Of a DNA stretch of 64,000 bases, positions 1,250-49,628 are shown one piece after another. Below the pieces are notes generated by a model. That model did not search any database, was not told the origin of the DNA, and saw only the letters and a program-made list of their open reading frames with translations. Numbering within the stretch: position 1 is the stretch's first letter; every line of letters begins with the position of its first letter. Where the stretch lies: assembly GCA_951406725.2 (NCBI GenBank), contig OX597816.1:134416001-134480000 (forward strand), given 5' to 3'. The translations under genes were made by a program, and so were the position numbers. Origin of the DNA: Octopus vulgaris (lineage: Eukaryota).

Positions 1250-2790
1250 ACCCTTTGATTCCAGACCTTGCATTGTACATGGTGACCATGAAATTGGCTC
1301 TTGTAATGAGGAGAGAACAAGGCTACTGAACTTCTGTCCTAATTTCTAAGATCTACAATACCAACTTCAGAAAGCCAGCCAGTCATCTGATAACCTATCA
1401 GTCTGGTGACCACACTAGCAAGATTGACTACATAGTTGAGTGGCTGGTGAGAGCTGTACAAGCCATGTAGGTATGTCATCAGTAAAATGAAAGTTGGCAC
1501 TGTGTATAGCAATGAATTTAGTGTATCAGAGTCCTCCAGGCTATCACAGAATACTGGCTGCCCTTGAGAATTCCTCTGTGCTGATGACTTTGTCCTTATA
1601 GCTGAATCACTACCTGACCTAGAGAAGAAATTTCAGGTGTGAAAGCAAGGCCTTAGGGTTAATTTAGCAAAAACCAAAGTCCTAGTAAGTAGGGAAACAG
1701 ACAAATCACAAGTCTCTTCAGGGAGATGGCCCTACTCAGTATGTAAGAAGGGTGTTGGTAGAAGCTCCATACATTGTACCCAGTGCGAGCTTTGGACACT
1801 TAAGTAGTGTAGCAGTATCACAGGAATGTTAACAGAAAATATAGTCTTCGTGTGTGACAAATGTGCTGGTAAATACAAGCACTGAAAATGCATAGACAAT
1901 AGACCCCTCAATTGCTGAGGGTGATCATTAGAAGTAGTAGATAGTTTCTGTTACCTAGGAGACCTAGTTAGCAGTGGTGGAGGAAGTTCTGAAAGTATAG
2001 TTGTTAGAATAAGAATGGGCTGGACAAAGTTCAGAGAGCTTCTACCTTTTTTGATAACTAAGAGCCTCTCCCTCAGAGTGAAACGCAGATTGTATGATGC
2101 CTGTGTACATACAGCTATGCTACATGGCAGTGAAACATGGGCTTTGACTACAGAGGACTTGCAGAGGCTTGTTACAAATGAAGCTAGCATGCTCCAATGG
2201 ATGGATAATGTCAGTGTGCACACACGACAGAGTGTAAATCATTTAAGAGGAAAACTGGGTATAAGAGGTATCAGATGTTGTGTGCAAGAGAGAAGACTGT
2301 GCTGGTTTGGTCATGTGATGCACATGGATGAGGACAGCTGTGTAAATATGTGCTGAGCTCTAATTGTGGAGGGAACCTGTGGAAGGGGTAGACCCTGGAA
2401 GACATGGAACAAATTGGTGAGAAAGGATCCTTGGATGCTGGACCTCACTGAGGAAATTACGAGGAACCAGGGATTGTGATTTGCTGTACTTGATAAGACA
2501 CATCAAGCTAAGTAAAATTGCTGTCTTCTATACATACAGGCTTGTCCTTCCAGGTGCCAGTTCCACATAAAAAGCATCCATGCCAGTGCTGCATAAATGC
2601 ACCCATGCCAGTGGCACGTACAAAGCAGACAGCACACTCAGTTAAGTGGTTAGCATTAGGAGAGACGTCTAGCCATAGAAACTATGCCACAACAGGCAGT
2701 CGGAGTTTGAACAGCTTCCCAGCTGGCCAGTTCCATGTCAAACCGTCCAACCCATGCCAGCATGGAAAACTGGTGATGATGATGACGTAC
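1250..2790 (+). mobile_element. Degenerate RTE-clade LINE with 3' tail ending in (GAT)n
   Basis: GWTKFRELLP, LYDACV..AMLHGSETW, RRLCWFGHV, GRGRP.KTW; internal deletions and stops. Confidence 0.9.
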
Positions 2791-2889: not shown

Positions 2890-4610
2890 AAGTAGTAACA
2901 TTACTACAGAGTAAAATCTATTTGCCAACATAAAGTGGAAATTCTGATTAGGATGGTATTACTACCTTTTTCTGGCTGGCTACCAACGCACAATAATAAG
3001 GATGCAGTTGTGCATCGGCAGCCAGCTGGAAAAGATGTTTCCCTGGGGCTAAAAATGGTAGTAACATCTTCATAATCAGGACTGTCACTTTACATTGGCA
3101 AATAGACTTTACTCTGCATAAATACATATAGACTACCCTACAAAACACCCTAACCAAAAATTACCAGTACTAGATACAGAACTCTGGCTGGAAAGTGTAA
3201 ATAATAAAACCCAAATCCTCCATTCACACTATGCAAAACCTATGGCCTCCAAATACCTGATCCACCAGAACTCAGCTATCACAGACAATGCCAAATTCAA
3301 TATATTGATGGCAGACCTCATCAGAGTAATGAGAAATGTGTCCTGCATGTGCAACCCTACAGAGTTAAAGAGACACATTCAACACTTCGTTCATTGTATG
3401 CAGTTCTCAAGATACAGCCATAAAGAAAGGATCAGAGTATATAAAGGAGCCATGAGGAAATTTGAAACTATCATACATAACAATAGGAATGGGATTTGCC
3501 CACTTTGTAGGAGCAAGTCATGGAATACCATTGAAAGGACTAAGAAGAAAATAGAGAATGCCAATTCATGGTATGATAGCCACAAATACCAGAGTGTCAT
3601 GTTCATTGACACCACCCCTAGAGGCAAATTGGCGTACTGCTTTAGAAGAGCCCTTGACAAAATTAAGGTTGTAGAAAGGCCAGGTAACCCTATCAAATCC
3701 CTAATCGGTAGAACCTACTCTTTTAATAGAACCCCCTGCACTGATAGGAACTGTATTGTATGTAGATTTAGCCCACGAACAAACTGTAAAGCTAGGAATG
3801 TAGTCTATAGTTTAAGATGTACAGAGGGACGGTGCAGAAATAAGACAATGACATATATAGGGGAGACAGCATGGAGCATAGGAAAGAGGGTAAATGAGCA
3901 TTGGAGGGAACTTAAGGAAGAGAAGGGCTCATCAGTTCTTTACCAGCATGCCGAGTGGGAACACGGCCACTCACTCAATAACATAGAAGTTAAAACCTTA
4001 TCCACACATAGAATGGACACAACACTTAGACAAATTACAGAAGCCTAAATAGAAAGCTAGAATGGAATATTAGCACACACCCCACACACACAACAACCTA
4101 TGACAGAATAAGATACTCATAAACTAATAATAATATGAAACTAATACAATAGACAGGTAAATAAATGGAATTAAATAATTATATACATAAACAAAATATA
4201 ATAAATTAAATTAAATTGATACAAAAAAGAAAGAAACAAAAAAGTAAGTAGATAAAAACAAATGAATAAAATAAAAGTAAATTAAACAAACTTGAATAAA
4301 CAGGGGGTACTGATAATGCAGGTACTATACACATTCCTACACACACACTTGCTAAACATAGACACAGAGAGGGATATACGCAAACGCAAATACAACAGGA
4401 GTACAAAATGGCAGATCATTAGGAAGGAGAGACACAAAAAAGAAAGAAAGCAAAGGACCACTGATGAGGTCACAGAAGTGAGATGAAAGAACTCTGGCCG
4501 AAATACAATTAATATGAGATAAAGCTGAAGCAAGTGAATATCAAATATATAGTGTGTGTGTTTTTATTGGTTAAACTGACAACATGACCATCCTCAAATG
4601 TAACAACATA
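2890..4610 (+). mobile_element. 5'-truncated Penelope-like element (RT C-terminus + GIY-YIG), different family from the 39-47 kb element
   Basis: DYP...KLPVLDTELW, HYAKPMAS, CTDRNCIVC, NVVY..RC...C..YIGETA, SVLYQH...H, RQITEA in/near ORF 3242-4048; TA-rich ends. Confidence 0.85.
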
Positions 4611-5311: not shown

Positions 5312-5595
5312 TTATCTTTTACTTGTTTCAGTCATTAGAATGTGGTAATGCTGGGGCACTGCCTTGAAGAATTTTTAGTCAAACAAATTGACCTCTGTAC
5401 ATTTCTTTAAGCCTGGTGCTTATTCTATTGGTTGCGTTTGCTGAACCGCTGAAACACAAGCATGAAAACACACACAAATATATACACACACACACGCATG
5501 ACAGACTTCTTTCAGTTTCTGTCAACCAAATCCACTCACAAGGCTTTGGTCAGCTTGAGGCTGTAGTAGAGGACACTTATCCAAGGTGCCATGCC
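5312..5595 (-). mobile_element. SINE family A, truncated
   Basis: Tail and body homology; a similar partial copy lies at ~22425-22625. Confidence 0.8.
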
Positions 5596-11598: not shown

Positions 11599-12089
11599 GT
11601 TAGTAAATTTATGTATAAATTTAAAATATTTCCTTGGGAAGTGGTTTACCAGTCAAAGAATAATCTGAGTGATTCATATCAAAAATGCCACTTTAAGTCC
11701 ATGACCAAATCACTTAAATCTCAAATAGATGTTGTAAACTTGTCATTCTAAGAAGCAATAGCACTGCAAAAAAAATGAAAAGTGGTTCATTAGCTTGTAA
11801 CATTACCTCTGCCTCACATTCAACTATTTCTGTGTTACACTGGCCACAAAGGGGACATGTGAGGTTAATTCTGCATGAGCATCATGCTTCTCTCTCAGAT
11901 GGGAATCTACCACAGCTAAAAGAAGCTCTTAAATGAGCATGCATTTTGTATCAAAAGCCTATATGAGAGTTTTGCTTATGGTATCTACCACAGTAAAGTT
12001 TGTTCTAACTGAACATACATGCTTAAGTGGAAATAAATATTACATTTTGGTATTAATGCTGCCTCTGTCACTAATATATATCTCTTAAA

Positions 12090-12590
12090 ATGCATCTATT
12101 AAAAATTTTACAAAGCCTATACATTCAAGGAAAGTGTTTACCCACTAAGCTAAGGAAGATCTTAGCCACACAAGTTTCTCTTGGGGAAGAGAGAGCACAA
12201 CACTTTCTGGTAGCATTTTCTCCTAGCGAGGTTAGGGTTGGGCTGACAGAAACTCATTATAGTATGGGGCAACAACATTGAAAATCTCTTTACTGCTGAC
12301 CTCCTTCGCTAGGTTCCAGAACACTGCAGCTGGATGACAAGAAGCTCTCTTAATGTTGCCAGCCTCTCATTTAGCTCCCTAAATGGCCTATAGGCACCAG
12401 ATTCTAAGTCCAAAGTTACATCAAGGAAATCAACTGTCTTCAGGAGGGTTTCAATTGTGATCTTGAGACCAAGAAAATTCATGGTGTGAGCAAGGTCCTT
12501 CCTAAGCTTATCAAGTGTGTAACCATCCTGCCTCAATATTGATTTCAAATCTTGGCACAATGCCAGAATTTTGCAAGGAGAAAATAAGTC
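12090..12590 (-). mobile_element. Degenerate PLE RT fragment
   Basis: LGLKITIETLLKTVDFLDVTLDLESGAYRPFR resembles the motif-7 region of the 42296 ORF. Confidence 0.7.
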
Positions 12591-16445: not shown

Positions 16446-18155
16446 AAATTATTGGATCAGGTGATGAAAGTTACAGAGAGGGTCAGAGCTCAACTAATTA
16501 GGAAGAGAGTCTAGATGAGATGCAGTTCAGTTTTGTGTCAGGCAGAAGCACTACTGATACTATATTTCTGGTGAAGCAACTTTTGTACTTGACTTTTATT
16601 AACTTGGAGAAAGTCTTTGACAGGGTCCCCCAATCTCTTATCTGATGGTCATTGCAGAAACTGGAAATAAATGAGTGGCTGTAAGAGCTGTACAAGCTCT
16701 GTACTGGGACGCTGTCAGTAAGGTGAAGTTTGGCAATGAGTATAGTGAAGAATTCCGAGTAGAAGTAGGGGTTCACCAAGGATCAGTCCTCAGCCCCCTC
16801 TTATTCATTGTAGTCCTCCAGGCAATAACAGAGGAATTCAAGACAGGCTGCCTCTGGGAACTCCTCTATGCTGATGACCTTGCTCTAATAGCCAAGTCAC
16901 TGCCAGAATTGGAGACGAACTTTAGGGTGTGGAAGCAAGGTCTAGAATCGAAGGGCCTTAGGGTTAACCTAACCAAAAGCAAAGTCTTAGTAAGTAGGAA
17001 GGCTGTCAAATCACAACACCCTTCAGGTAGATGGCCCTACTCGATCTGTAGAAAAGGTGTGGATAGAAACTCCATACGATGTACTCAGTGTAAGCTATGG
17101 ACACATAAGAGGTGCAGCAATATCAAAGGAAGGTTAAACGGGAAAATAGTTTTTGTGTGTGGCAGATGCACTGGGGCAATAAACACTGAAGATGTACAGA
17201 AAACATCGCAACTAAAGGGCTTTCACTCAGGGTGAAAGATAGACTGTATGATGCATATGTGCAAACTGCTATGCTAAACAGCAGTGAAACATGGGCCGTG
17301 AATGCTGAGGACATGCGTAGGCTTAAAAGAAATCAAGCTTTTTTGATCCACTGAGTGTAAGCACCCTGAGAGAAAAGTTGGGCATAAGAAGCATCAAATG
17401 TGGTGTGCAAGAAAGGTGACTGCGCTGGTATGGCCATGTGTTACATATGAATGAAAGCAGCTGTGTGAGGATGTGCCACTCCCTCACTGTAGAAGGAACC
17501 TGTAGAAGAGGTAGACCCAGGAAGACATGGGATGAGGTGGTGAAGCATGACCTTCAAACATTGGGCCTCACAGAGGCAATGACAGGAGACCAAGACCTTT
17601 GGAGATATGCTGTGATTGAGAAGACCCAGCAACTAAAGTGAGATGGCAGCCACACATGTCCAGCCCTGTTAAAAATACTCCTGGTGCATCAGGCGATATG
17701 ATATGCTTGAGAAGACCTGTTGAGTCAAGTAAAACCAATATCGTAACTAGGGTCAGTGATCCCTGGCTGGCTCCTGTGCCGTTGGCACATAAAAAGTACC
17801 ATCCAAATGTGTTCGTTGCCAGGTCCGCCTTACTGGCTCCAGTGCTTGTGGCATGTAAAAAGCACCAACCGATCGTGACCGACACCAGTACCCCTGTACT
17901 GGTGACATGTAAAAAGTACCATCCTAACATGATCATTGCCAAGCCCACCTTACTGGCTCTTGTGCTAGTAGCACGTAAAAAGCACCCACTACACTCTTGG
18001 AGTTGTTGGTATTAGGAAGGGCATCCAGCTGTAGAAACTCTACCAGACCAGATTGGAGCCTGGTGCAGCCACTGGCTCTTCAGACCTCAGTCAAACCATC
18101 CAACCCATGCCAGCATGGAAAACGGATGTTAATTGATGATGATGATGACGACGAC
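16446..18155 (+). mobile_element. RTE-clade LINE fragment (RT domain to 3' tail), same family as 1250-2790
   Basis: GVHQGSVLSPLLF, LLYADDL, GLRVN..KSK, Cys/His cluster, WYGHV, GRPRKTW; tail ...CATGCCAGCATGGAAAACGGATGTTAA(TGA)n. Confidence 0.93.
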
Positions 18156-19475: not shown

Positions 19476-20316
19476 AATCAACATCGTATAATTTTAAACA
19501 AACATTGAATACTATTTTAAAATTACTTGAATGAGTTTTCTATCCTTTTAAATTAATTTCCATTTTGATAGGATTTCATTTTATTAGTTTTGAAGCCTAA
19601 CAATAGCTTTTATTCATTTAGATTTTATTTTTCAGTTTCTATAAGTTATCACTTTTTGCTCTTATCTCTAGTTTCTTCTTATCTATTTCCAAAGCATGTT
19701 CTTCAATAACTTTTAGCAACAATTTCCTGGTTATTTATGTCATTAATAGATTTACCTTCATCACTTGCCACCAATTTCATTGACATCTTCCTGCCTTACT
19801 GTAAATACAATTATATTTGCTAACACTTTCATAACTGACAGTTACTAATGGTATGTCTACCATCCTTAAACTGACTGTTGTTAGTAAAGAGTGTTAATAA
19901 GCTAAACTACAAGCAAATTATTATCAATGATAATGAAATAAATTTTAATGAAAATTCATTAGTAACTGTCAGTTATGAAAGTGTTAGCAAATATAATTGT
20001 ATTTACAGTAAGGCAGGAAGATGTCAATGAAATTGGTGGCAAGTGATGAAGGTAAATCTATTAATGACATAAATAACCAGGAAATAGTTGCTAAAAATTA
20101 TTGAAGAAGGTGCTTTGGAAATAGCTAAGAAGTAAGAAACTAAAAATAAAAGTAAAAGGTGATAACTTATAGAAACTGAAAAATAAAATCTAAATGAATA
20201 AAAGCTATTGTTAAGCTTCAAAACTGATAATGGAAATTATTTTAAAGGATAGAAAACTCATTCAAGTAATTTTAAAATACTATTTAATTTTTGTTTAAAA
20301 TTACACACTGTTGATT
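19476..20316. repeat. Long inverted repeat between the convergent gene ends
   Basis: Arms 19476-19850 and 19957-20316; 19722-19850 / 19957-20085 is a perfect 129-bp match. Confidence 0.95.
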
Positions 20317-26527: not shown

Positions 26528-26626
26528 TGTGACATCAGCTGAGGCAAAATGAATTTCATGTCTTCATATACTGCCTTGTATTGCATACATGTAGCTGTTG
26601 GGTTGATAATAACTTCAACTTCTCCT
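26528..26626 (-). CDS. CNBD2-like, coding exon 6
   Basis: ttttatag|A GGA GAA GTT...TCA CA|gtaaga; GEVEVIINPTATCMQYKAVYEDMKFILPQLMS. Confidence 0.85.
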
Positions 26627-38489: not shown

Positions 38490-39048
38490 CTGGAAAGAAT
38501 AAGTTATATTTAGCTACACAAAAATCTGTTCCAGCCATGTAGGTCAAAACTCAGTCACAGTAGAAGTATAAATATCTGAATCAGTTTTTATGAAACATAT
38601 CAATCATTGACTGATATCATCAATAGAATGCAACATCTTATGAAGATATCGAAAAAAATCCTCAGAAAGATTTCTTACCTGAAAAATGGGTAAAAGTTAA
38701 TGACAGGACAAGCAGTTAGCTGTAAAATAATCTTTTCTACTAAAGACACAAGGCCTGAAATTTGGTGGGAGGGGACTAGTTGATTGCATCAACCCCAGTG
38801 TTCACTTGTGGTTAATTTATCGACCTCAAAAGAATGAAAAACAAGGTTGACCTCAGCAGAATTTGAACTCAGAATGCAGCAACAGGTGAAATACTGATAA
38901 GCATTTCGTGCAGCATGCCAACAATTCTGCCAACTCATCACCTTGTAAAATAATGTCTTAATAATAAATACTCACCCAACCCCAATACTAGCTTGGAAAC
39001 AGATGTCAAATAAATCAACAAATATTTATGAATATATGCATGTGTATT

Positions 39049-39083
<35 letters not shown>

Positions 39084-39087
<4 letters not shown>

Positions 39088-39997
39088 ATCAAAATAAAAA
39101 CATGATGCGAAGGATTCAGCAGTACATATGTTTCGGGCCTTTATTAGACAGATTTATAACAATGCATAATGTATGTCTGTGGCTTTCTTCAGCCGCGCAC
39201 AACAGCTTCCACAAGGACATGTGTTACATCAAAAGTTCTTGGTTGGGGATGCAAATCCTCTCATTCGCGTACGACATAATGCGGCAGCAGCATAGAATTG
39301 AAGCGTCCATCTCTTTCTTCTCTCAATGTAGAATGAGGAAATTTGGATGTTGAAGTAATGTAAATAAATAAATACATATATAGACGTGAAGATGGAGGGG
39401 TGAGAATTCAGGACGAGGGATAAAAAAATGTATAAAAAGCGTAAGTATAGAAAAATATAAAAATGTAGAGTATAAAGATATAAAGGGATATAAGGAGATG
39501 TAAAGGGGGTATAAAGAATATAAAGAGATATAAAGAAATATAAATAAATGTAAAGGCATAAGGTTATAAAGTAAAAATAGAAATAGAAATAAAAGTAAAG
39601 AGAATAAATCGAAGTAGAATAAAGGTAAAAATAAAAGTAAAAATAAAAATAAAATAAAATAAAATAAAATAAAAATATAATTTGGTAAAGTTTAACATGA
39701 GATGAAGGTGGTTGAAAGTTAGAGGTGTGTGTTAAAGGTGCCCACGTAGGGGCGGGCGGGGGGAACTGAAAATTGGAAGGGTGGGAAGTGGAGTTTGGCG
39801 GTGTGCGTTCAACATCCGAGTTAGAAATGTGAAAGGGTATAGATATAGGGAAATAAAGAGACTATATAGGAAGGATATGGGTGTAGGGGAAGAAATATGT
39901 AGGGAAAAGAAGACATATATGGGAGACAAAATTTGTATATATAGGAGGAAAATGCAGGGAAACATATATGCACATACACACACCCACACACACACAC
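39084..39997 (-). repeat. Inverted, internally deleted pLTR copy
   Basis: 39084-39599 is the reverse complement of ~41632-42143; 39600-39997 is the reverse complement of ~40212-40604. Confidence 0.9.
39119..39196 (-). ncRNA. Type I hammerhead ribozyme in inverted pLTR (two substitutions)
   Basis: GCGG-CUGAAGA-aAGCC...GGCC-c-GAAA-CAUAUGUA^CUGC; stem II G>A mismatch, stem I C>U wobble. Confidence 0.75.
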
Positions 39998-42218
39998 ACC
40001 ATCCTGTATACACAAACTTATTAATACTTTCAAATACTACAAAGCTTAGGTTATTATACCAACTCCCCCATGCAATTTCCTCCCACCCGGTGCAACCGGT
40101 CGGCTCCAGCACATCCCGCTTTCCTATATGTGCGTGTATATGCGTATATGTGTGCGTATATATATGTATGTGCACATATGTGTACGTATATGTATATATA
40201 TATATATATGTGCGTGTGTGTGGGGGGGGGTGTATGTGCATATATGTTTCCCTGCATTTTCCTCCTATATATACAAATTTTGTCTCCCATATATGTCTTC
40301 TTTTCCCTACATATTTCTTCCCCTACACCCATATCCTTCCTATATAGTCTCTTTATTTCCCTATATCTATACCCTTTCACATTTCTAACTCGGATGTTGA
40401 ACGCACACCGCCAAACTCCACTTCCCACCCTTCCAATTTTCAGTTCCCCCCGCCCGCCCCTACGTGGGCACCTTTAACACACACCTCTAACTTTCAACCA
40501 CCTTCATCTCATGTTAAACTTTACCAAATTATATTTTTATTTTATTTTATTTTATTTTTATTTTTACTTTTATTTTTACCTTTATTCTACTTCGATTTAT
40601 TCTCATTTTTATTTTCATCCCTTATCTTAATTCTTATAATTTTTATAGTTTTTATATTTCATTTCTAACCTTTACATTGTATTTCTTATTTTATACTGTA
40701 TTTCTTACTTTTATTTCTAATTTTTACCCTTACCCTCATTCTTACCCCTAACTTATCGCTTTATATCTCTATATATGTCTATTTTTTTTGCTTATCCCTT
40801 ATTTACTTACCTATGGATCCACTTTATGATTATATGAGCGTCCGTGTACGTATGTATACGTATACATATATGTACATATGTACGAGTAAACACCTACGTC
40901 TGGATGTACATACCCCGTATTTCTTTTTTTACATGTTTTCTTATATTCATATGTTTACACCTATTTGTATACATCTTTTAATATCTTATAGCTATACCCA
41001 TATGCGCGTATGTCTGTGTGTGTGTATGTAAGTGTATATGTGCACGCACATATGCACACACAGCCGTGTGTGCGTGCACGTGTAGACGTGAGTGCGCGAT
41101 TCTTTACATACGTTCTTATATACATCCTTTAATATCTTATATCTAAACCTGAAAGCGTGGGCATATGCGTATGTGTATGTAAAGATGGGCGCACGTATGT
41201 ACATATGGGTGTGTACACGTATAATGTCCGTGTATACATGCGGATATTCTGTTGTATGTATGTATATGTACGCGCGTGCGTGTGGGTGTGTGTATGTTTA
41301 TGTACATGTTTACACGTGAGTGCGTGTGTATGCTTATAGGCTTGGAGGCGTATATGTACGCGTGTATATGGGTGTATGTATCCATGATGGTATGTATGTA
41401 CTAGATGACCAATTAATTCAAAGAACCAGATTAAACGCTCAACAGCTCTGATTTACAACACATTAGGTCCCCAGACGACACTGTTGATTTATTGACACCC
41501 AAAACTTCTACAACTAAATTTTATCAATCTCCTGACCACCATGTTTGGTCCGTAACCTCTATACATCCCTTATCTTTATATTTTTTTACATTTTTATCAT
41601 GTTTATTCCTATTTTTATTTTTTTACTTTTTACTTTTATTTCTATTTCTATTTTTACTTTATAACCTTATGCCTTTACATTTATTTATATTTCTTTATAT
41701 CTCTTTATATTCTTTATACCCCCTTTACATCTCCTTATATCCCTTTATATCTTTATACTCTACATTTTTATATTTTTCTATACTTACGCTTTTTATACAT
41801 TTTTTATCCCTCGTCCTGAATTCTCGCCCCTCCATCTTCACGTCTATATATGTATTTATTTATTTACATTACTTCAACATCCAAATTTCCTCATTCTACA
41901 TTGAGAGAAGAAAGAGATGGACACTTCAATTCTATGCTGCTGCCGCATTATGTCGTACGCGAATGAGAGGATTTGCATCCCCAACCAAGAACTTTTGATG
42001 TAACACATGTCCTTGTGGAAGCTGTTGTGCGCGGCTGAAGAAGGCCACAGACATACATTATGCATTGTTATAAATCTGTCTAATAAAGGCCCGAAACATA
42101 TGTACCGCTGAATCCTTCGCATCATGTTTTTATTTTGATCAATTTACTCCACCACCTACACCACCAAACGGTATACACAGGTGCTTATAATTATCAAGTA
42201 CTCACCCCGAATTTCTAT
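39998..42218 (+). repeat. PLE pseudo-LTR, upstream direct copy (starts with the last ~50 nt of the ORF)
   Basis: Matches 44755-46978 at an offset of ~4757-4759 with only a handful of differences. Confidence 0.95.
42031..42108 (+). ncRNA. Type I hammerhead ribozyme in pLTR
   Basis: GCGG-CUGAAGA-a-GGCC...GGCC-c-GAAA-CAUAUG-UA^CCGC; stem I GCGG/CCGC, palindromic stem III ACAUAUGU, GUA cleavage triplet. Confidence 0.85.
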
Positions 42219-42295
42219 ACTCAACTCACCTACGTTGTCACTAGGATCTGATCCCACGTAACCGCGACAACCTTTAGTACTTGACGAACCCAAGC

Positions 42296-44806
42296 ATGAA
42301 GATTCAAAGGATTCACACTAACTTCTCTCCCAAGGACATACCTCTCCACTCCGACAAAACTTACACGACGACCCTCATCCACCGGACCACAGACTTTATT
42401 AGAAGAATCAGGTGGGCGGCCTACCATTTCGATAACCCGGGGAAAAGCAACCCCAACTCTAACCAAGAAGAAATAGCACACAGGAAGATATTTAAAAGCA
42501 GAAGAAACCCACCCTCTAACTACGCACTGGAAAATTTTGAAAAAGACTTAATCGACCTCATTACCAACATCAACATTAGTAAACATAAGACCATTTCCAA
42601 CACCCACTTAAGGAGCCTTAAAGATTTCCTGCATTCACTTAGGAACGATGATAGTCTTATCATACCCGCCGACAAGACTGGGAACTGGTATAGGCTAGAC
42701 TACCAAACCTACAAATCGCTCATCATGAGGGAACTTAGCAAAAAATATAAAACTACTTCTACGGATAACCTTAAGGAAATTAACTACAAAATCAAGGAAG
42801 TTATGAGCAAATTAGACCTCCTGGACAGAACAGAACCTATTAAACCACAAGTACCCAAAATTACTATTAAAGACCATAAGAAAGACTTCCCGGATAATGT
42901 AGGAGTACGATTAATCTGTCCGACTAAATCGGATATCGGCAGACTTAGCAAGACTATCCTGGACAAGGTGATCCCACGCATCAAACCCCACATCCCACTC
43001 CAACTATGGATTAACACCGACGATGTGCTAGAATGGTTTAACACTATCACCAATAGGCCCAACTACTCATTCATCCAATTCGACATAGCTAGCTACTACG
43101 CCAGTATATCCCCCATCTTACTTAACAAATCCCTTATATTTGCCCGCAACCTTTCACTCATAGACAGAGAAAAAATTGACATAATACTATTAGCTAGAAA
43201 AACCATAATAGAATTCGACGGTAGACTCTGGACCAGATCCGATACCCCCGACAATTTTGATGTGGCTATGGGCTCGAGCGATTCAGCTCAGGTGACTGAC
43301 TTGGTCGGGGCCTACCTGCTCAAGAAGCTTTTCTCCGAGGTACCGGATCTTCAGAGGGGTCTATACAGAGACGACGCTCTCTTCATATACCCCACCAACA
43401 ATAGGAGTAAACAAGAAAGAATTAGGAAAAAGATCAGGCTTTTTTTCAAATCCTTCAATCTTAAACTAGAATTTATGACCAATACTAAAATAGTAAACTT
43501 CTTAGATGTTACGTTAGACTTGAATAAGCACCTTCACCACCCGTATAGGAAACCCGAATAAACTACCAAATACATCCATACCTCTTCCAACCATCCACCC
43601 TGTATAATTAGCACCACGGTCCAAGCCATCTCAGACAGACTTACAAAACTATCCTCTAATAGAGAAATTTTCAATAATCACGCACAACGCTACAACCAGG
43701 CTCTCTATAGTGCCGGGTATAACCAGAGAATATCATATGTAGACCACCCGGGAACGTCCGTCGGACATAAAACTCCCAATTATAATCGAACTCAGCACTC
43801 AACTCACACTAGCGATAATTCTAATTTAAACTCCATACAACGTATAGGAAATAGGCGAACTAATAGAATAGCACACAATAGCAACCCTCCCGACGAGAGC
43901 AATATAGATCCTATTAGGAGAAATAGAAGGGATAATAGTAGATTACGCAAATATATATGGTTCAACATACCTTACAACTTAGCAGTTAGGGGTAAGTTAT
44001 GTAAGAGAATATTCTCTATCATTTCCAACAACTTCCCACCCACCCATAAGTATAGAAGTATCTTCTCCAACAAAACCATTAGGATTTCCTACTCTACCCT
44101 GCCCAACATGAGCTGCCTCATAGCTAAACATAACTATATTAATATTAGAACAGCTAGATCAAGAGCAAACTATAGCGACCAACAGAACCCCCCTCATCTA
44201 GATAGTAGACAATATAACCAGACTGGCAGCCATACTACCCAAACAGTTAGTAATAACACCCGCCAACACAACAGAGGAAATACTACACCCATCAACAACC
44301 AGGAGGATATCAACGCCCCCACTCGTATTGCAACACCTCCGCCTGGGATTAGCAGCACACGACCGAATAACGCAATGCAATGCAACTTCAGATGTGCATC
44401 AGAGTGCCCGCTACAGGGCGCATGTAGGGCGAAAAACGTAATATATTCATGTGAGGTGAGTACCCAGTTTAACGCACTCACCTACATAGGGTGCTCAACC
44501 TCCTGGAAATCCAGATACTACAACCACCGGTCCTCGCTGAAACACAGACATAAGGCTAACAGCACCTCCCTTTCTAAAAGAATTTGGGAATTAAAAGACA
44601 AATGCATAGGCTTCAAACTCAGGTGGTCCATCATCGGATCAGCTGCACCTTATTTAAATAATAGAGCAGGATGCCAACTATGTTGTGTAGAACTCCTGAA
44701 CATCTTGAAATTCAAAGACAAACACAATCTTATTAACAAAAGGTCAGAGTTCAAACCATCCTGTATACACAAACTTATTAATACTTTCAAATACTACAAA
44801 GCTTAG
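42296..44806 (+). pseudogene. PLE reverse transcriptase + GIY-YIG endonuclease ORF (~836 codons) with one premature TAA at 43559-43561
   Basis: Motifs ADKTGN, FDIASYYASI, MGSSDSAQVTDLVG, GLYRDD, VNFLDVTL, SNHPP, IWFN.PY, C..RC..CPL.G.C, VIY...YIG, RYYNH, CQLC..E, NKRSE..C.H. The frame is continuous across the TAA. Confidence 0.93.
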
Positions 44807-46978
44807 GTTATTATACCAACTCCCCCATGCAATTTCCTCCCACCCGGTGCAACCAGTCGGCTCCAGCACATCCCGCTTTCCTATATGTGCGTGTATATGC
44901 GTATATGTGTGTGTATATATATGTATGTGCACATATGTGTACGTATATGTATATATATATATATGTGTGTGTGTGTGTGGGGGGGGGGGTGTATGTGCAT
45001 ATATGTTTCCCTGCATTTTCCTCCTATATATACAAATTTTGTCTCCCATATATGTCTTCTTTTCCCTACATATTTCTTCCCCTACACCCATATCCTTCCT
45101 ATATAGTCTCTTTATTTCCCTATATCTATACCCTTTCACATTTCTAACTCGGATGTTGAACGCACACCGCCAAACTCCACTTCCCACCCTTCCAATTTTC
45201 AGTTCCCCCCGCCCGCCCCTACGTGGGCACCTTTAACACACACCTCTAACTTTCAACCACCTTCATCTCATGTTAAACTTTACCAAATTATATTTTTATT
45301 TTATTTTATTTTATTTTTATTTTTACTTTTATTTTTACCTTTATTCTACTTCGATTTATTCTCATTTTTATTTTCATCCCTTATCTTAATTCTTATAATT
45401 TTTATAGTTTTTATATTTCATTTCTAACCTTTACATTGTATTTCTTATTTTATACTGTATTTCTTACTTTTATTTCTAATTTTTACCCTTACCCTCATTC
45501 TTACCCCTAACTTATCGCTTTATATCTCTATATATGTCTATTTTTTTTGCTTATCCCTTATTTACTTACCTATGGATCCACTTTATGATTATATGAGCGT
45601 CCGTGTACGTATGTATACGTATACATATATGTACATATGTACGAGTAAACACCTACGTCTGGATGTACATACCCCGTATTTCTTTTTTTACATGTTTTCT
45701 TATATTCATATGTTTACACCTATTTGTATACATCTTTTAATATCTTATAGCTATACCCATATGCGCGTATGTCTGTGTGTGTGTATGTAAGTGTATATGT
45801 GCACGCACATATGCACACACAGCCGTGTGTGCGTGCACGTGTAGACGTGAGTGCGCGATTCTTTACATACGTTCTTATATACATCCTTTAATATCTTATA
45901 TCTAAACCTGAAAGCGTGGGCATATGCGTATGTGTATGTAAAGATGGGCGCACGTATGTACATATGGGTGTGTACACGTATAATGTCCGTGTATACATGC
46001 GGATATTCTGTTGTATGTATGTATATGTACGCGCGTGCGTGTGGGTGTGGGTGTGTTTATGTACATGTTTACACGTGAGTGCGTGTGTATGCTTATAGGC
46101 TTGGAGGCGTATATGTACGCGTGTATATGGGTGTATGTATCCATGATGGTATGTATGTACCAGATGACCAATTAATTCAAAGAACCAGATTAAACGCTCA
46201 ACAGCTCTGATTTACAACACATTAGGTCCCCAGACGACACTGTTGATTTATTGACACCCAAAACTTCTACAACTAAATTTTATCAATCTCCTGACCACCA
46301 TGTTTGGTCCGTAACCTCTATACATCCCTTATCTTTATATTTTTTTACATTTTTATCATGTTTATTCCTATTTTTATTTTTTTACTTTTTACTTTTATTT
46401 CTATTTCTATTTTTACTTTATAACCTTATGCCTTTACATTTATTTATATTTCTTTATATCTCTTTATATTCTTTATACCCCCTTTACATCTCCTTATATC
46501 CCTTTATATCTTTATACTCTACATTTTTATATTTTTCTATACTTACGCTTTTTATACATTTTTTATTCCTCGTCCTGAATTCTCGCCCCTCCATCTTCAC
46601 GTCTATATATGTATTTATTTATTTACATTACTTCAACATCCAAATTTCCTCATTCTACATTGAGAGAAGAAAGAGATGGACGCTTCAATTCTATGCTGCT
46701 GCCGCATTATGTCGTACGCGAATGAGAGGATTTGCATCCCCAACCAAGAACTTTTGATGTAACACATGTCCTTGTGGAAGCTGTTGTGCGCGGCTGAAGA
46801 AGGCCACAGACATACATTATGCATTGTTATAAATCTGTCTAATAAAGGCCCGAAACATATGTACCGCTGAATCCTTCGCATCATGTTTTTATTTTGATCA
46901 ATTTACTCCACCACCTACACCACCAAACGGTATACACAGGTGCTTATAATTATCAAGTACTCACCCCGAATTTTCTAT
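44755..46978 (+). repeat. PLE pseudo-LTR, downstream direct copy
   Basis: Near-identical to 39998-42218; ends in (TA)n. Confidence 0.95.
46790..46867 (+). ncRNA. Type I hammerhead ribozyme in pLTR (second copy)
   Basis: Identical to 42031-42108. Confidence 0.85.
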
Positions 46979-47574
46979 ATATATATATATATATATATAC
47001 ATATATTTATTGTAATTGTAATATTTGGTCAACAACTGATGAGGGTTTGAAGATTATCTGCATTCTGTTATATGTGTGGTCATTTTCCCCCTTTTTCCTG
47101 TAAATTTCTTTGTCCTCACTGTGCTACATATTCCTTATTTATATATATATATTTATATCATCAATGTCATCATCATCATCATCATTTAATGTCTATCTTC
47201 CATACTGGCATGGATTGGACTGTTTGACACGAGCTGGAAAGCCAGAGGAATGCACCAAGTTCCACCGACTGTTTTGGCATGGTTTTTATGGCTGGGTGCT
47301 CTTCCTAATACCAGCCACTTTACATAGTAGACTGGGTACTTTTTAGATGGTTCTAGCACCAATGAGGTTTTTACAGCTTCACGGTTGTGAACAAGCAGCA
47401 CGATCTTACAAGCAATGTCGTTTGTTTACAGTCATCCATGAAAAACATGTCTGGCCATGAGAAATATTACCTTGCTTGGAAATATGTGAGGTTGGTAGCA
47501 GGAGGGGCATCCAACTGTAAAAATCTGCCTCAACAAATTCTGCCTGACCTTTGTGGACATTAACTGATGATGGC

Positions 47575-47714
47575 AGTATGTATGTATGCATGTATTTATG
47601 TAAGTATGTATGTATGTATGTATCATCATCATCATTTAACGTCCGCTTTCCATGCTAGCATGGGTTGGACGATGTATGTATGTATGTATGTATGTGTGTG
47701 TGTGTGCATGTATG

Positions 47715-47748
<34 letters not shown>

Positions 47749-47778
47749 TGTACATATGTACATATGTATGCACGTATG

Positions 47779-47812
<34 letters not shown>

Positions 47813-47826
47813 TGTATGTATGTATG
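47575..47826. repeat. (TATG)n microsatellite
   Basis: Direct reading; similar tract at 48790-49020. Confidence 0.9.
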
Positions 47827-47989
47827 TCTCTTCTGTTTTTTAATTATTATAAATCTACCACTAAGGAGGGAGCCAGTTTCCAATTTATTATTGGTATGAA
47901 TATGAATTCATAGTCTGAACATAGAAGCTGGAGGTTTCAAAGCAGTTGTCCATAGCTATTCTTTTTTTTTTTTTTTGATTTTCAAAGAG

Positions 47990-48785
47990 ATATTTATATC
48001 TGCAGGGCAGCTGACTTCTGTGATGGTACATAACTTTGCCCCTCTGTCCCAGACAACAATATCCGGTCAGTTATGTTTACATTTGACAAACGTTTTGATG
48101 GGAATATTCCACCAGTATTCCGTGAGTTGGAGTTTATGAATGTATTCCATAATAGAGGGATTTTCTAAGTTTATTTCAGGACAGTCTTTTTGTAGATGGC
48201 ATTGTGAATTGTTTTAGCAACAATATTGTGCCACATATAGTGAAGGCGCATGGCTCAGTGGTTAGAGCGTCGAGCTTACGATCGTGAGCTCAAATCCCGG
48301 ACCGGGCTGCGTGTTGTGTTCTTGAGCAAAGCACTTTATTTCACGTTGCTCCAGTTCACTCAGCTGTAGAAATGAGTTGTGACGTCACATGTGCCAAGCT
48401 GTATCGACCTTTGTCTTTCCCTTGGATAACACTGGTGGCATGGAGAGGGGAGGCTGGTATGCATGGGCGACTGCTGGTCTTCCATAAAAACAACCTTGCC
48501 CGGACTTGTGTCTAGGAGGGTAACTTTCTAGGTGCAATCCCATGGTCATTCATGACCAAAGGGGGTCTTTACCCTTTTATTGTGCCACATAGGGAGATAG
48601 TACTGTGATGACATTTTAGGACAGCTGCTAATCACATGCATGGTGTCTTTCACAGAAACATGACATAGCCTATACATGTGGTTGCATCTTAGGATTACAA
48701 GTGCGTCACTGTGTCTCTTGTTCACCAGGTACTCTGTGGCAATCTCCTGAACCTGGATTGCAAACACATAGCCCTCAAAGTGTGA
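47990..48785 (-). mobile_element. RLE-type (R4/Dong-like) LINE fragment split by a SINE
   Basis: EGYVFAIQ.QEIAT...RLCH...HVISSCPK..SQYY..WHN, continuing past the SINE at ~48235. Confidence 0.65.
48240..48578 (+). mobile_element. tRNA-derived SINE family B
   Basis: TGGCTCAGTGGTTAGAGCG head; TSD TATTGTGCCACATA on both sides. Confidence 0.9.
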
Positions 48786-48980
48786 TGTGATGTATGTATG
48801 TACGTATGTACGTATGTACATATGTATGTATGTATGTATGTATCTTTGTATGTTTGTATGTATGTATGTACATATTATGTAAATACATACATATGTATGT
48901 ATGTATGTATTGTATGTATGTATGTATGTATTGTATGTATTGTATGTATGTATTGTATGTATTGTATGTATGTATGTATG

Positions 48981-49014
<34 letters not shown>

Positions 49015-49628
49015 TATATACACCTCCACACACACAAAGTTAGGCAGAAAGTAGGAACTACAGATAAGCAAGCAGATACATAGATGGATAGATATATGTG
49101 TGTATGTAAGTTGATTGGTATTTTGTTTTATTGTCAAAGATATTACTTTACAAAACTGTAGTTTACAATAATGAATTCTAAATTGAAAATGTTATGTATT
49201 TTAGTTGGAAAAGACTCCTACCTTCCCCAAAATGTCTTAGATGCAAATGGTTGACAGCTGTATGCAATTTCTTTGCTGGGTGGTGTTTAAATTAGTTTTG
49301 CAATCAAATGTTATTGTCCTCCACTGACTTTTTTTAACATAAAAAGAAATTTAAAGAAGGGATAGTGGGGTTAGGGTAGAAAAAAGAAATAAGATGTTAA
49401 TGAAACTAAGGAATGTGCTTTAATGAGAAGGTATAACTCTTCAGTTCAGGACACAGACCCTAGTGGTTAGGGTGTCAAATTCACAATTGCAAGATTGTGG
49501 TTTCAATTCTTGGTCCTGGTGGTGTTATCTGTTACTTGTTTCAGTCATTAGACTGCAGTCATGCTAGGTCACTGCCTTGAATTTTTAGTCGAATGAATTT
49601 TTTTAAATTGATAAAATAATTTACAAAC

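Follow-up and report, generated by a model that had tools for sequence, protein, structure and literature searches.

A young Hydra-type Penelope-like element with long pseudo-LTRs in an intron of Octopus vulgaris

Penelope-like elements (PLEs) of the Hydra clade, which includes Hydra-1_Obim of Octopus bimaculoides, are defined by DKT and RW motifs, the lack of a CCHH motif, CxxC and CxH motifs, a (TA)n target and a hammerhead ribozyme motif, and their complete published families measure 2,084–2,729 bp (PMC8557442). Publications already exist on Hydra elements of octopus and on young Penelope families. Here we describe a further copy, found in 64,000 nt of the Octopus vulgaris genome (assembly GCA_951406725.2, contig OX597816.1, forward-strand positions 134,416,001–134,480,000; this whole stretch is called the window, and all positions are counted from its first letter). 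Like members of the Hydra clade, the element has one open reading frame (ORF) that carries a C-terminal GIY-YIG endonuclease, the motifs DKT, RW, CxxC and CxH with no CCHH, a canonical-type hammerhead near the 3′ end, a (TA)n target, and a partial tandem with an inverted 5′ copy; an inverted copy, of 966 nt, is likewise described for Penelope-13_HM (PMC8557442). It departs from the clade in its unit of 4.76 kb, compared with less than 3 kb, in a non-coding trailer of ~2.1 kb, in an altered linker cysteine and in a longer stem II of the hammerhead. By eye, its N terminus and RT4 motif mark it as a different family from Hydra-1_Obim, whose published unit is 2,507 bp with no pseudo-long terminal repeat (pLTR) seen. 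The element is a young, one-stop-broken Hydra-type PLE copy, an odd size variant of a known sort, and reveals no new kind of element; for cephalopods, whose only published Hydra family lacked a pLTR, it offers a complete, worked case of such an insertion. We assign a probability of roughly 0.8 to the reading as a whole, in which a single Hydra-type element inserted into a (TA)n tract of an octopus intron, likely by target-primed reverse transcription, and owes the length of its pLTRs to its trailer.

Two further systems bear comparison. In Pen1_Av and Pen2a_Av of Adineta vaga, as here, an inverted copy, a direct copy, the ORF and a second direct copy follow one another, with an optional tail, and Pen1_Av offers the nearest precedent for a long trailer, a spacer of 0.9–1.5 kb between ORF and 3′ pLTR that is ascribed to host capture (PMC3846280). 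The Adineta elements also carry Asn-rich ORF inserts; the corresponding N/R/T-rich linker expansions of the window element, at amino acids ~486–553 and ~618–695, are by comparison short (~70–80 amino acids, 15–18% Asn). Whereas the Adineta pLTRs measure 193–218 bp and their tails 31 bp, the whole trailer here lies within the repeat and the tail is ~72 nt. Poseidon PAc of Anolis shares an AT-rich target and two ends that bound an AC-rich tail past the hammerhead, the tail lying between two internal starts of the reverse transcriptase (RT) in an AC-rich stem loop (PMC11167929). It belongs to another clade, its hammerhead overlaps the ORF start, whereas here the ATG lies 192 nt downstream of the predicted cut, and internal initiation, shown for PAc in vitro, is something we only infer for the window element.

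The element comprises the following features, of which the leader was read directly from the letters.

39053–39084, no strand: left (TA)16 target tract
39085–39999, minus strand: inverted partial pLTR copy, 915 nt, without tail, overlapping the direct copy by 2 nt
39119–39196, minus strand: third copy of the hammerhead, oriented in the sense of the host gene and altered once in stem II and once in stem I
39998–42215, plus strand: upstream direct pLTR, a 5′-truncated tandem copy starting 16 codons ahead of the ORF stop
42031–42108, plus strand: type I hammerhead motif with CUGAAGA core and a stem III that is short and palindromic; cleavage predicted after 42104
42144–42215, plus strand: AC-rich tail, ~72 nt, in both direct copies and not in the inverted copy
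42216–42295, plus strand: leader, the unique 80 nt ahead of the ATG
42296–44806, plus strand: single RT and GIY-YIG ORF, 836 codons, internal TAA at 43559–43561
44381–44803, plus strand: Cys linker with the GIY-YIG endonuclease (VIY...YIG, in which R, H, E and N are retained; C-terminal CxxC and CxH)
44755–46975, plus strand: downstream direct pLTR, the ORF end with ~2.17 kb of trailer
46790–46867, plus strand: downstream hammerhead; cleavage predicted after 46863, which is 112 nt short of the element end
46976–46999, no strand: right (TA)12 target tract

A preliminary description of the locus had proposed a PLE with unusually long pLTRs, laid out as inverted pLTR, pLTR, ORF and pLTR between TA tracts, with about ten differences between the direct copies, retained CpGs, and an ORF with one stop and no frameshift. 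The identification stands and can now be narrowed to the Hydra type, and the pLTRs are indeed long against the relatives measured below, owing to the long 3′ trailer. Self-alignment of the window confirms the layout, except that the inverted copy falls short of a complete pLTR. The direct copies align by BLAST over 2228 columns at 99.4% identity, with 10 mismatches and 2 gaps (2 and 1 nt); 9 of the mismatches are true substitutions, the tenth falling just beyond the real 5′ boundary. For CpG, the observed-to-expected ratio reaches 1.05 and 1.01 in the two pLTRs and 0.69 within the ORF, compared with 0.21 and 0.24 in the flanks. Each pLTR shares with the ORF its final 16 codons and stop (52 nt), and the ~2.17 kb of non-coding trailer that follows accounts for the 2.2-kb length. 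Any target-site duplication is masked by the flanking TA tracts, and the first TATA of the right tract also matches the element's own continuation. The arrangement is that of PLEs generally, with partial tandem pLTRs, an inverted 5′ copy and an optional tail, the latter ~72 nt rather than the 30–40 bp reported for PLE tails (PMC8557442).

The inverted piece is the reverse complement of pLTR positions 40210–40604 joined to 41629–42143. Missing from it are ~210 nt at the start of the pLTR, ~72 nt at its end and ~1,024 nt of its interior, the latter deleted between T-rich tracts at which microhomology is not clear. Removal of the missing 1 kb as a spliced intron can be ruled out because GT-AG ends are absent. 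Such changes also bear on whether the duplication could have arisen during assembly. The 99.4% identity of the copies, the richness of the region in simple repeats and the fact that the locus is known from an assembly alone leave room for that explanation, yet a deletion and other changes are peculiar to the inverted copy, the geometry is that of the published PLE scheme, and the ends are those of relatives. Moreover, the 9 differing sites are CpG-biased: CpG decay explains 3 of 5 polarised changes (884 three-copy sites, of which CpG makes up 4.8%; P~0.001), a pattern that points to mutation in place and renders an assembly duplicate highly improbable.

The ORF runs from the ATG at 42296 to the TAG ending at 44806 without a frameshift, and its lone internal TAA is codon 422. 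In AlphaFold models of two parts of the ORF (pLDDT 93 and 90), the best match of the RT half is TERT (3du5, E 2.7e-10) and that of the C-terminal domain is the I-TevI GIY-YIG endonuclease (Z 9.1, root-mean-square deviation 2.5, 90 residues aligned), although by Foldseek the latter reaches an E of only 0.1. On these predicted folds, a TERT-related RT and a GIY-YIG domain occupy a single ORF, as expected of a PLE, in a copy interrupted by one internal stop. A homologue search returned 1,497 matches among 8,000 candidates, with identities of 30–39% among the 120 matches listed, and all invariant columns are kept in the endonuclease (17/17) and the RT (22/22).

The placement with the Hydra type is supported by motifs. 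Within a stored set of 124 proteins, 4 of them unrelated host proteins, DK[TS] occurs in 118 and DKG in none; the element itself reads ADKT, has RWA in place of RWK, a motif whose third residue varies in relatives too (K, R, M), and lacks an IFD: compared with 15 homologues, nothing is inserted from RT3 to RT4. Its C-terminal endonuclease lacks the Cys pair between VIY and YIG that would form part of a CCHH motif, as do all of the 112 long proteins (the query counted), and it ends with CQLC and CIH. The hammerhead motif near the 3′ end and the insertion into (TA)n add to the resemblance. The combination of a CCHH endonuclease with DKG that characterizes Penelope/Poseidon, Neptune and Nematis is not found, and Naiad/Chlamys elements (N-terminal endonuclease, DKA, no canonical hammerhead) are ruled out by the C-terminal endonuclease, the DKT and the hammerhead. 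Three stored proteins share a 9-residue motif with Hydra-2_Amil or Hydra-1_Ajap. The element belongs to a separate SAQ[VI]TD sublineage, together with proteins of the set of which two are named from Argonauta hians.

In both direct copies, the hammerhead motif is of type I, with a GCGG stem I, the CUGAAGA core and a palindromic ACAUAUGU stem III, and the two predicted cuts lie 4,759 nt apart. Descriptor matches in the window fall at 42035 and 46794 only, and none occurred in 300 shuffled units. The motif escaped a strict descriptor, since the base of stem II carries an A·C opposition, a place where most relatives are also mismatched; an Rfam scan returned no hammerhead and sub-threshold matches only, mostly to microRNA families on TA/TG-rich tracts. 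Stem II with its loop spans 51 nt, compared with 10–27 nt in relatives. Motifs of this sort are likely active as dimers, and their cleavage in vitro is weak (PMC4209133). The sole TATAAA of the upstream pLTR (42069) and the sole AATAAA of the trailer (46841) both lie in hammerhead loop II and are possible candidates for a promoter and a poly(A) signal. Two of the three changes specific to the inverted copy fall within its hammerhead, a post hoc observation (P~0.024) too weak to claim selection.

Past the cut, the element ends at two distances, +38–39 nt in the inverted copy and +112 nt in the direct copy, with the AC-rich tail between them. A similar pairing is seen among relatives: at the 14 of 45 hammerhead loci with a TA tract, two of which look like one family, the cut-to-tract distance was 31–51 nt (9 loci), 72 nt (1) or 100–109 nt (4). 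By our own arithmetic, a published hammerhead table gives values near 36–46 and 113–115 nt in several families, with others between or longer. Paired ends of this kind predict two priming sites.

The distance from ORF stop to predicted cut is 2,057 nt, compared with 21–549 nt (median 197) at the 45 of 79 related metagenome loci in which a hammerhead was detectable, so that pLTR length can be set by an expanded trailer, here ~10 times the relatives' median. Likewise, the cut-to-cut unit of 4.76 kb compares with 2.39–2.85 kb at 7 loci with two hammerheads. In the assembly of a related Hydra-type locus (L034, 1–5083), a unit of 2,427 nt recurs in near-perfect tandem (99.9%), which may be a true tandem or an assembly effect. 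The trailer consists largely of T/C-rich and alternating purine-pyrimidine blocks of low complexity, 13 of its 21 windows being less complex than every ORF window, and the short ORFs within it were not accepted as genes on this account. A literature search found no description of a 2-kb Hydra trailer or a 70-nt tail in the sources it covered, which lay outside Repbase, Dfam and subscription journals.

It is likely that the trailer was swollen by simple-sequence growth or by captured DNA. A recent capture of host DNA confined to this copy or sublineage, with most family members being ordinary Hydra elements of ~2.7 kb, would have a precedent in the variable spacers between ORF and 3′ pLTR that formed in this way (PMC3846280); weak similarity (66–85% over 38–152 nt) links portions of the trailer to (ATGT)n-type tracts at other places in the window, and the trailer is known from this locus alone. 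We nevertheless consider such an event unlikely. The trailer has a CpG ratio of ~1.0 compared with ~0.2 in the host flanks, unlike ordinary octopus DNA, and recent capture is therefore less favoured; it is common to all three copies here and has a strong strand bias. Four sequencing runs contain 52–62% of the words sampled from the region, of which ORF and leader make up 48% and flank 11%, an ambiguous result at the level of sampled words.

These features suggest how a single insertion might have been built. The endonuclease would nick AT-rich DNA, by analogy with the anole Poseidon (PMC11167929), and reverse transcription would start within the RNA at either of the sites bounding the AC-rich tail, +112 or +39 nt past the cut. 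A start at the far site could copy one 4.76-kb unit and a further 2.2 kb of tandem or circular template, yielding the partial tandem, and a further round of synthesis, begun at the near site and including a template jump of ~1 kb between T-rich tracts, could yield the short inverted copy. If so, the RT would be capable of copying 7 kb or more during a single insertion. The trailer itself probably grew by simple-sequence expansion or by an old uptake of flanking DNA. Afterwards the copy aged, acquiring one nonsense change and losing CpGs, and it is likely unable to make the endonuclease itself.

Several observations weigh against this account and against the placement on which it draws. Neither ORF domain was recognised in sequence searches of Pfam and PDB. 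The CxCx5C linker of the Hydra clade, present in 111 of the 124 stored proteins, is replaced by C-N-F-R-C-x3-C (that is, C-x3-C-x3-C), the second Cys having become Phe and a new Cys lying two residues on, with the outer spacing unchanged; this alteration may be a lesion of the copy or a family variant, and we file the element as a Hydra-type variant. A tree of 40 stored homologues groups the element with six SAQ/SAE-TD proteins (SH-aLRT 100), but it was built by a quick method without an outgroup, other PLE clades or published Hydra sequences. The hammerhead folds at −15.3 when constrained, compared with a minimum energy of −20.4 (z 0.95), and the tail region folds no better than shuffled sequences (z −0.03 and −0.71). 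The trailer comparison is skewed to short contigs: 34 of the 79 loci gave no hammerhead, most being too short, although 4 of these had more than 2 kb downstream. As a second trailer copy did not turn up, a family-wide trailer is extrapolated from one locus, and the order of the synthesis steps is one that we infer.

The family has been active recently, as the preliminary description had proposed, since near-identical ORF fragments lie on three other O. vulgaris chromosomes: three gene models, whose contigs measure 100, 216 and 21 Mb (that of the host gene is 182 Mb), contain amino acids 144–224 with 1–2 differences in 81 (98–99% identity). Three O. vulgaris gene models (P0232, P0271 and P0272) contain the same ORF fragment as an exon and diverge from the ORF at one common point, hinting at a cryptic splice donor, near 42967, that all three share. 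For O. vulgaris, 30 Penelope families of recent activity, with 329 insertions, are already reported (PMC13282606), and the repeat library of that study may include this family; from its figures, we calculate a mean insertion of ~5.5 kb. In a search of sequencing runs, 20 of the 24 listed contain part of 42220–47570 (shares 0.29–0.62; 9 studies, 4 organism labels), and no RNA run was among the holders in those 24.

For this copy, the terms very young and currently active proved too strong. With a published calibration in which a Jukes–Cantor distance of 0.09 equals 25 million years (My) (PMC13282606), the divergence of 0.2% per copy corresponds to 0.56 My (Poisson range 0.26–1.07), or to 0.19 My when CpG and microsatellite changes are set aside; these are upper figures, as RT errors contribute. 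The insertion is thus real and young but decaying, at about 0.2–1 My by a rough clock. A copy that still works, or is very recent and polymorphic at this site, with a TAA due to sequencing error or readthrough, would fit the full retention of invariant endonuclease and RT columns, the intact frame and the low divergence. Such a state is quite unlikely, however, given that all three other copies have S where this one has N, that CpG decay is seen, and that neutral decay at this divergence yields a stop with an expected P~0.2. Selenocysteine recoding of the kind found in some Naiads does not apply, because the TAA occupies a variable, non-Cys position.

Beyond the young, decaying Hydra-type insertion itself, we tentatively raise a broader possibility that goes well past this locus: octopods may have a Hydra sublineage of their own, with units doubled by a CpG-rich trailer of 2 kb and intact sources still transposing, and a tail of ~70 nt, fixed by two RT starts ~40 and ~110 nt past the cut, may be general among Hydra elements. 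If true, this would provide a live Hydra-clade system for the study of internal initiation outside Poseidon.

The host is an Octopus, a window exon being 99% identical to an O. vulgaris protein and 98% to one of O. bimaculoides. The interrupted gene encodes a cyclic-nucleotide-binding-domain protein and has exons on the minus strand to both sides of the element, which lies antisense in the intron at ~49624–38496; the next splice acceptor is 588 nt away from the left end of the element.

38497–49623, minus strand: host intron, approximate limits; the element ORF is antisense to the gene
57036–56992, 49890–49624, 38496–38392 and 32352–32161, minus strand: exons of the cyclic-nucleotide-binding-domain gene, approximate
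29639–29313, 25188–25075 and 21756–21169, minus strand: further exons of the same gene, approximate

An exon at 26625–26527 matches an Argonauta protein and is not in the O. vulgaris model of the host gene. In the host pre-mRNA, the inverted arms at 39085–42143 would form stems of 400 nt (with a 210-nt loop) and 515 nt. Cephalopods edit A to I heavily, and the arms are a candidate substrate for editing, or as double-stranded RNA or a source of small RNAs.

Other mobile elements are present in the window. An old, degraded Hydra-type fragment at 11774–12575 (minus strand) has 23–44% identity to homologues, and a 308-amino-acid frame at 3122–4048 (plus strand) resembles another PLE's C-terminal half, in which Cys motifs surround GIY-YIG; the frame is Neptune/Nematis-like by eye and gave no match in Pfam. 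Remnants of long interspersed nuclear elements lie at 16675–17235 and 1925–2356 (plus strand), the former with an RVT_1 and PHD-finger match. A nested inverted repeat at 19581–20230, with arms 93–97% complementary, resembles a miniature inverted-repeat transposable element, and a dispersed family (D13, D15–D18) resembling short interspersed nuclear elements occurs at 5312, 10124, 15661, 22427, 26936, 37645, 49525, 53318 and 60062.

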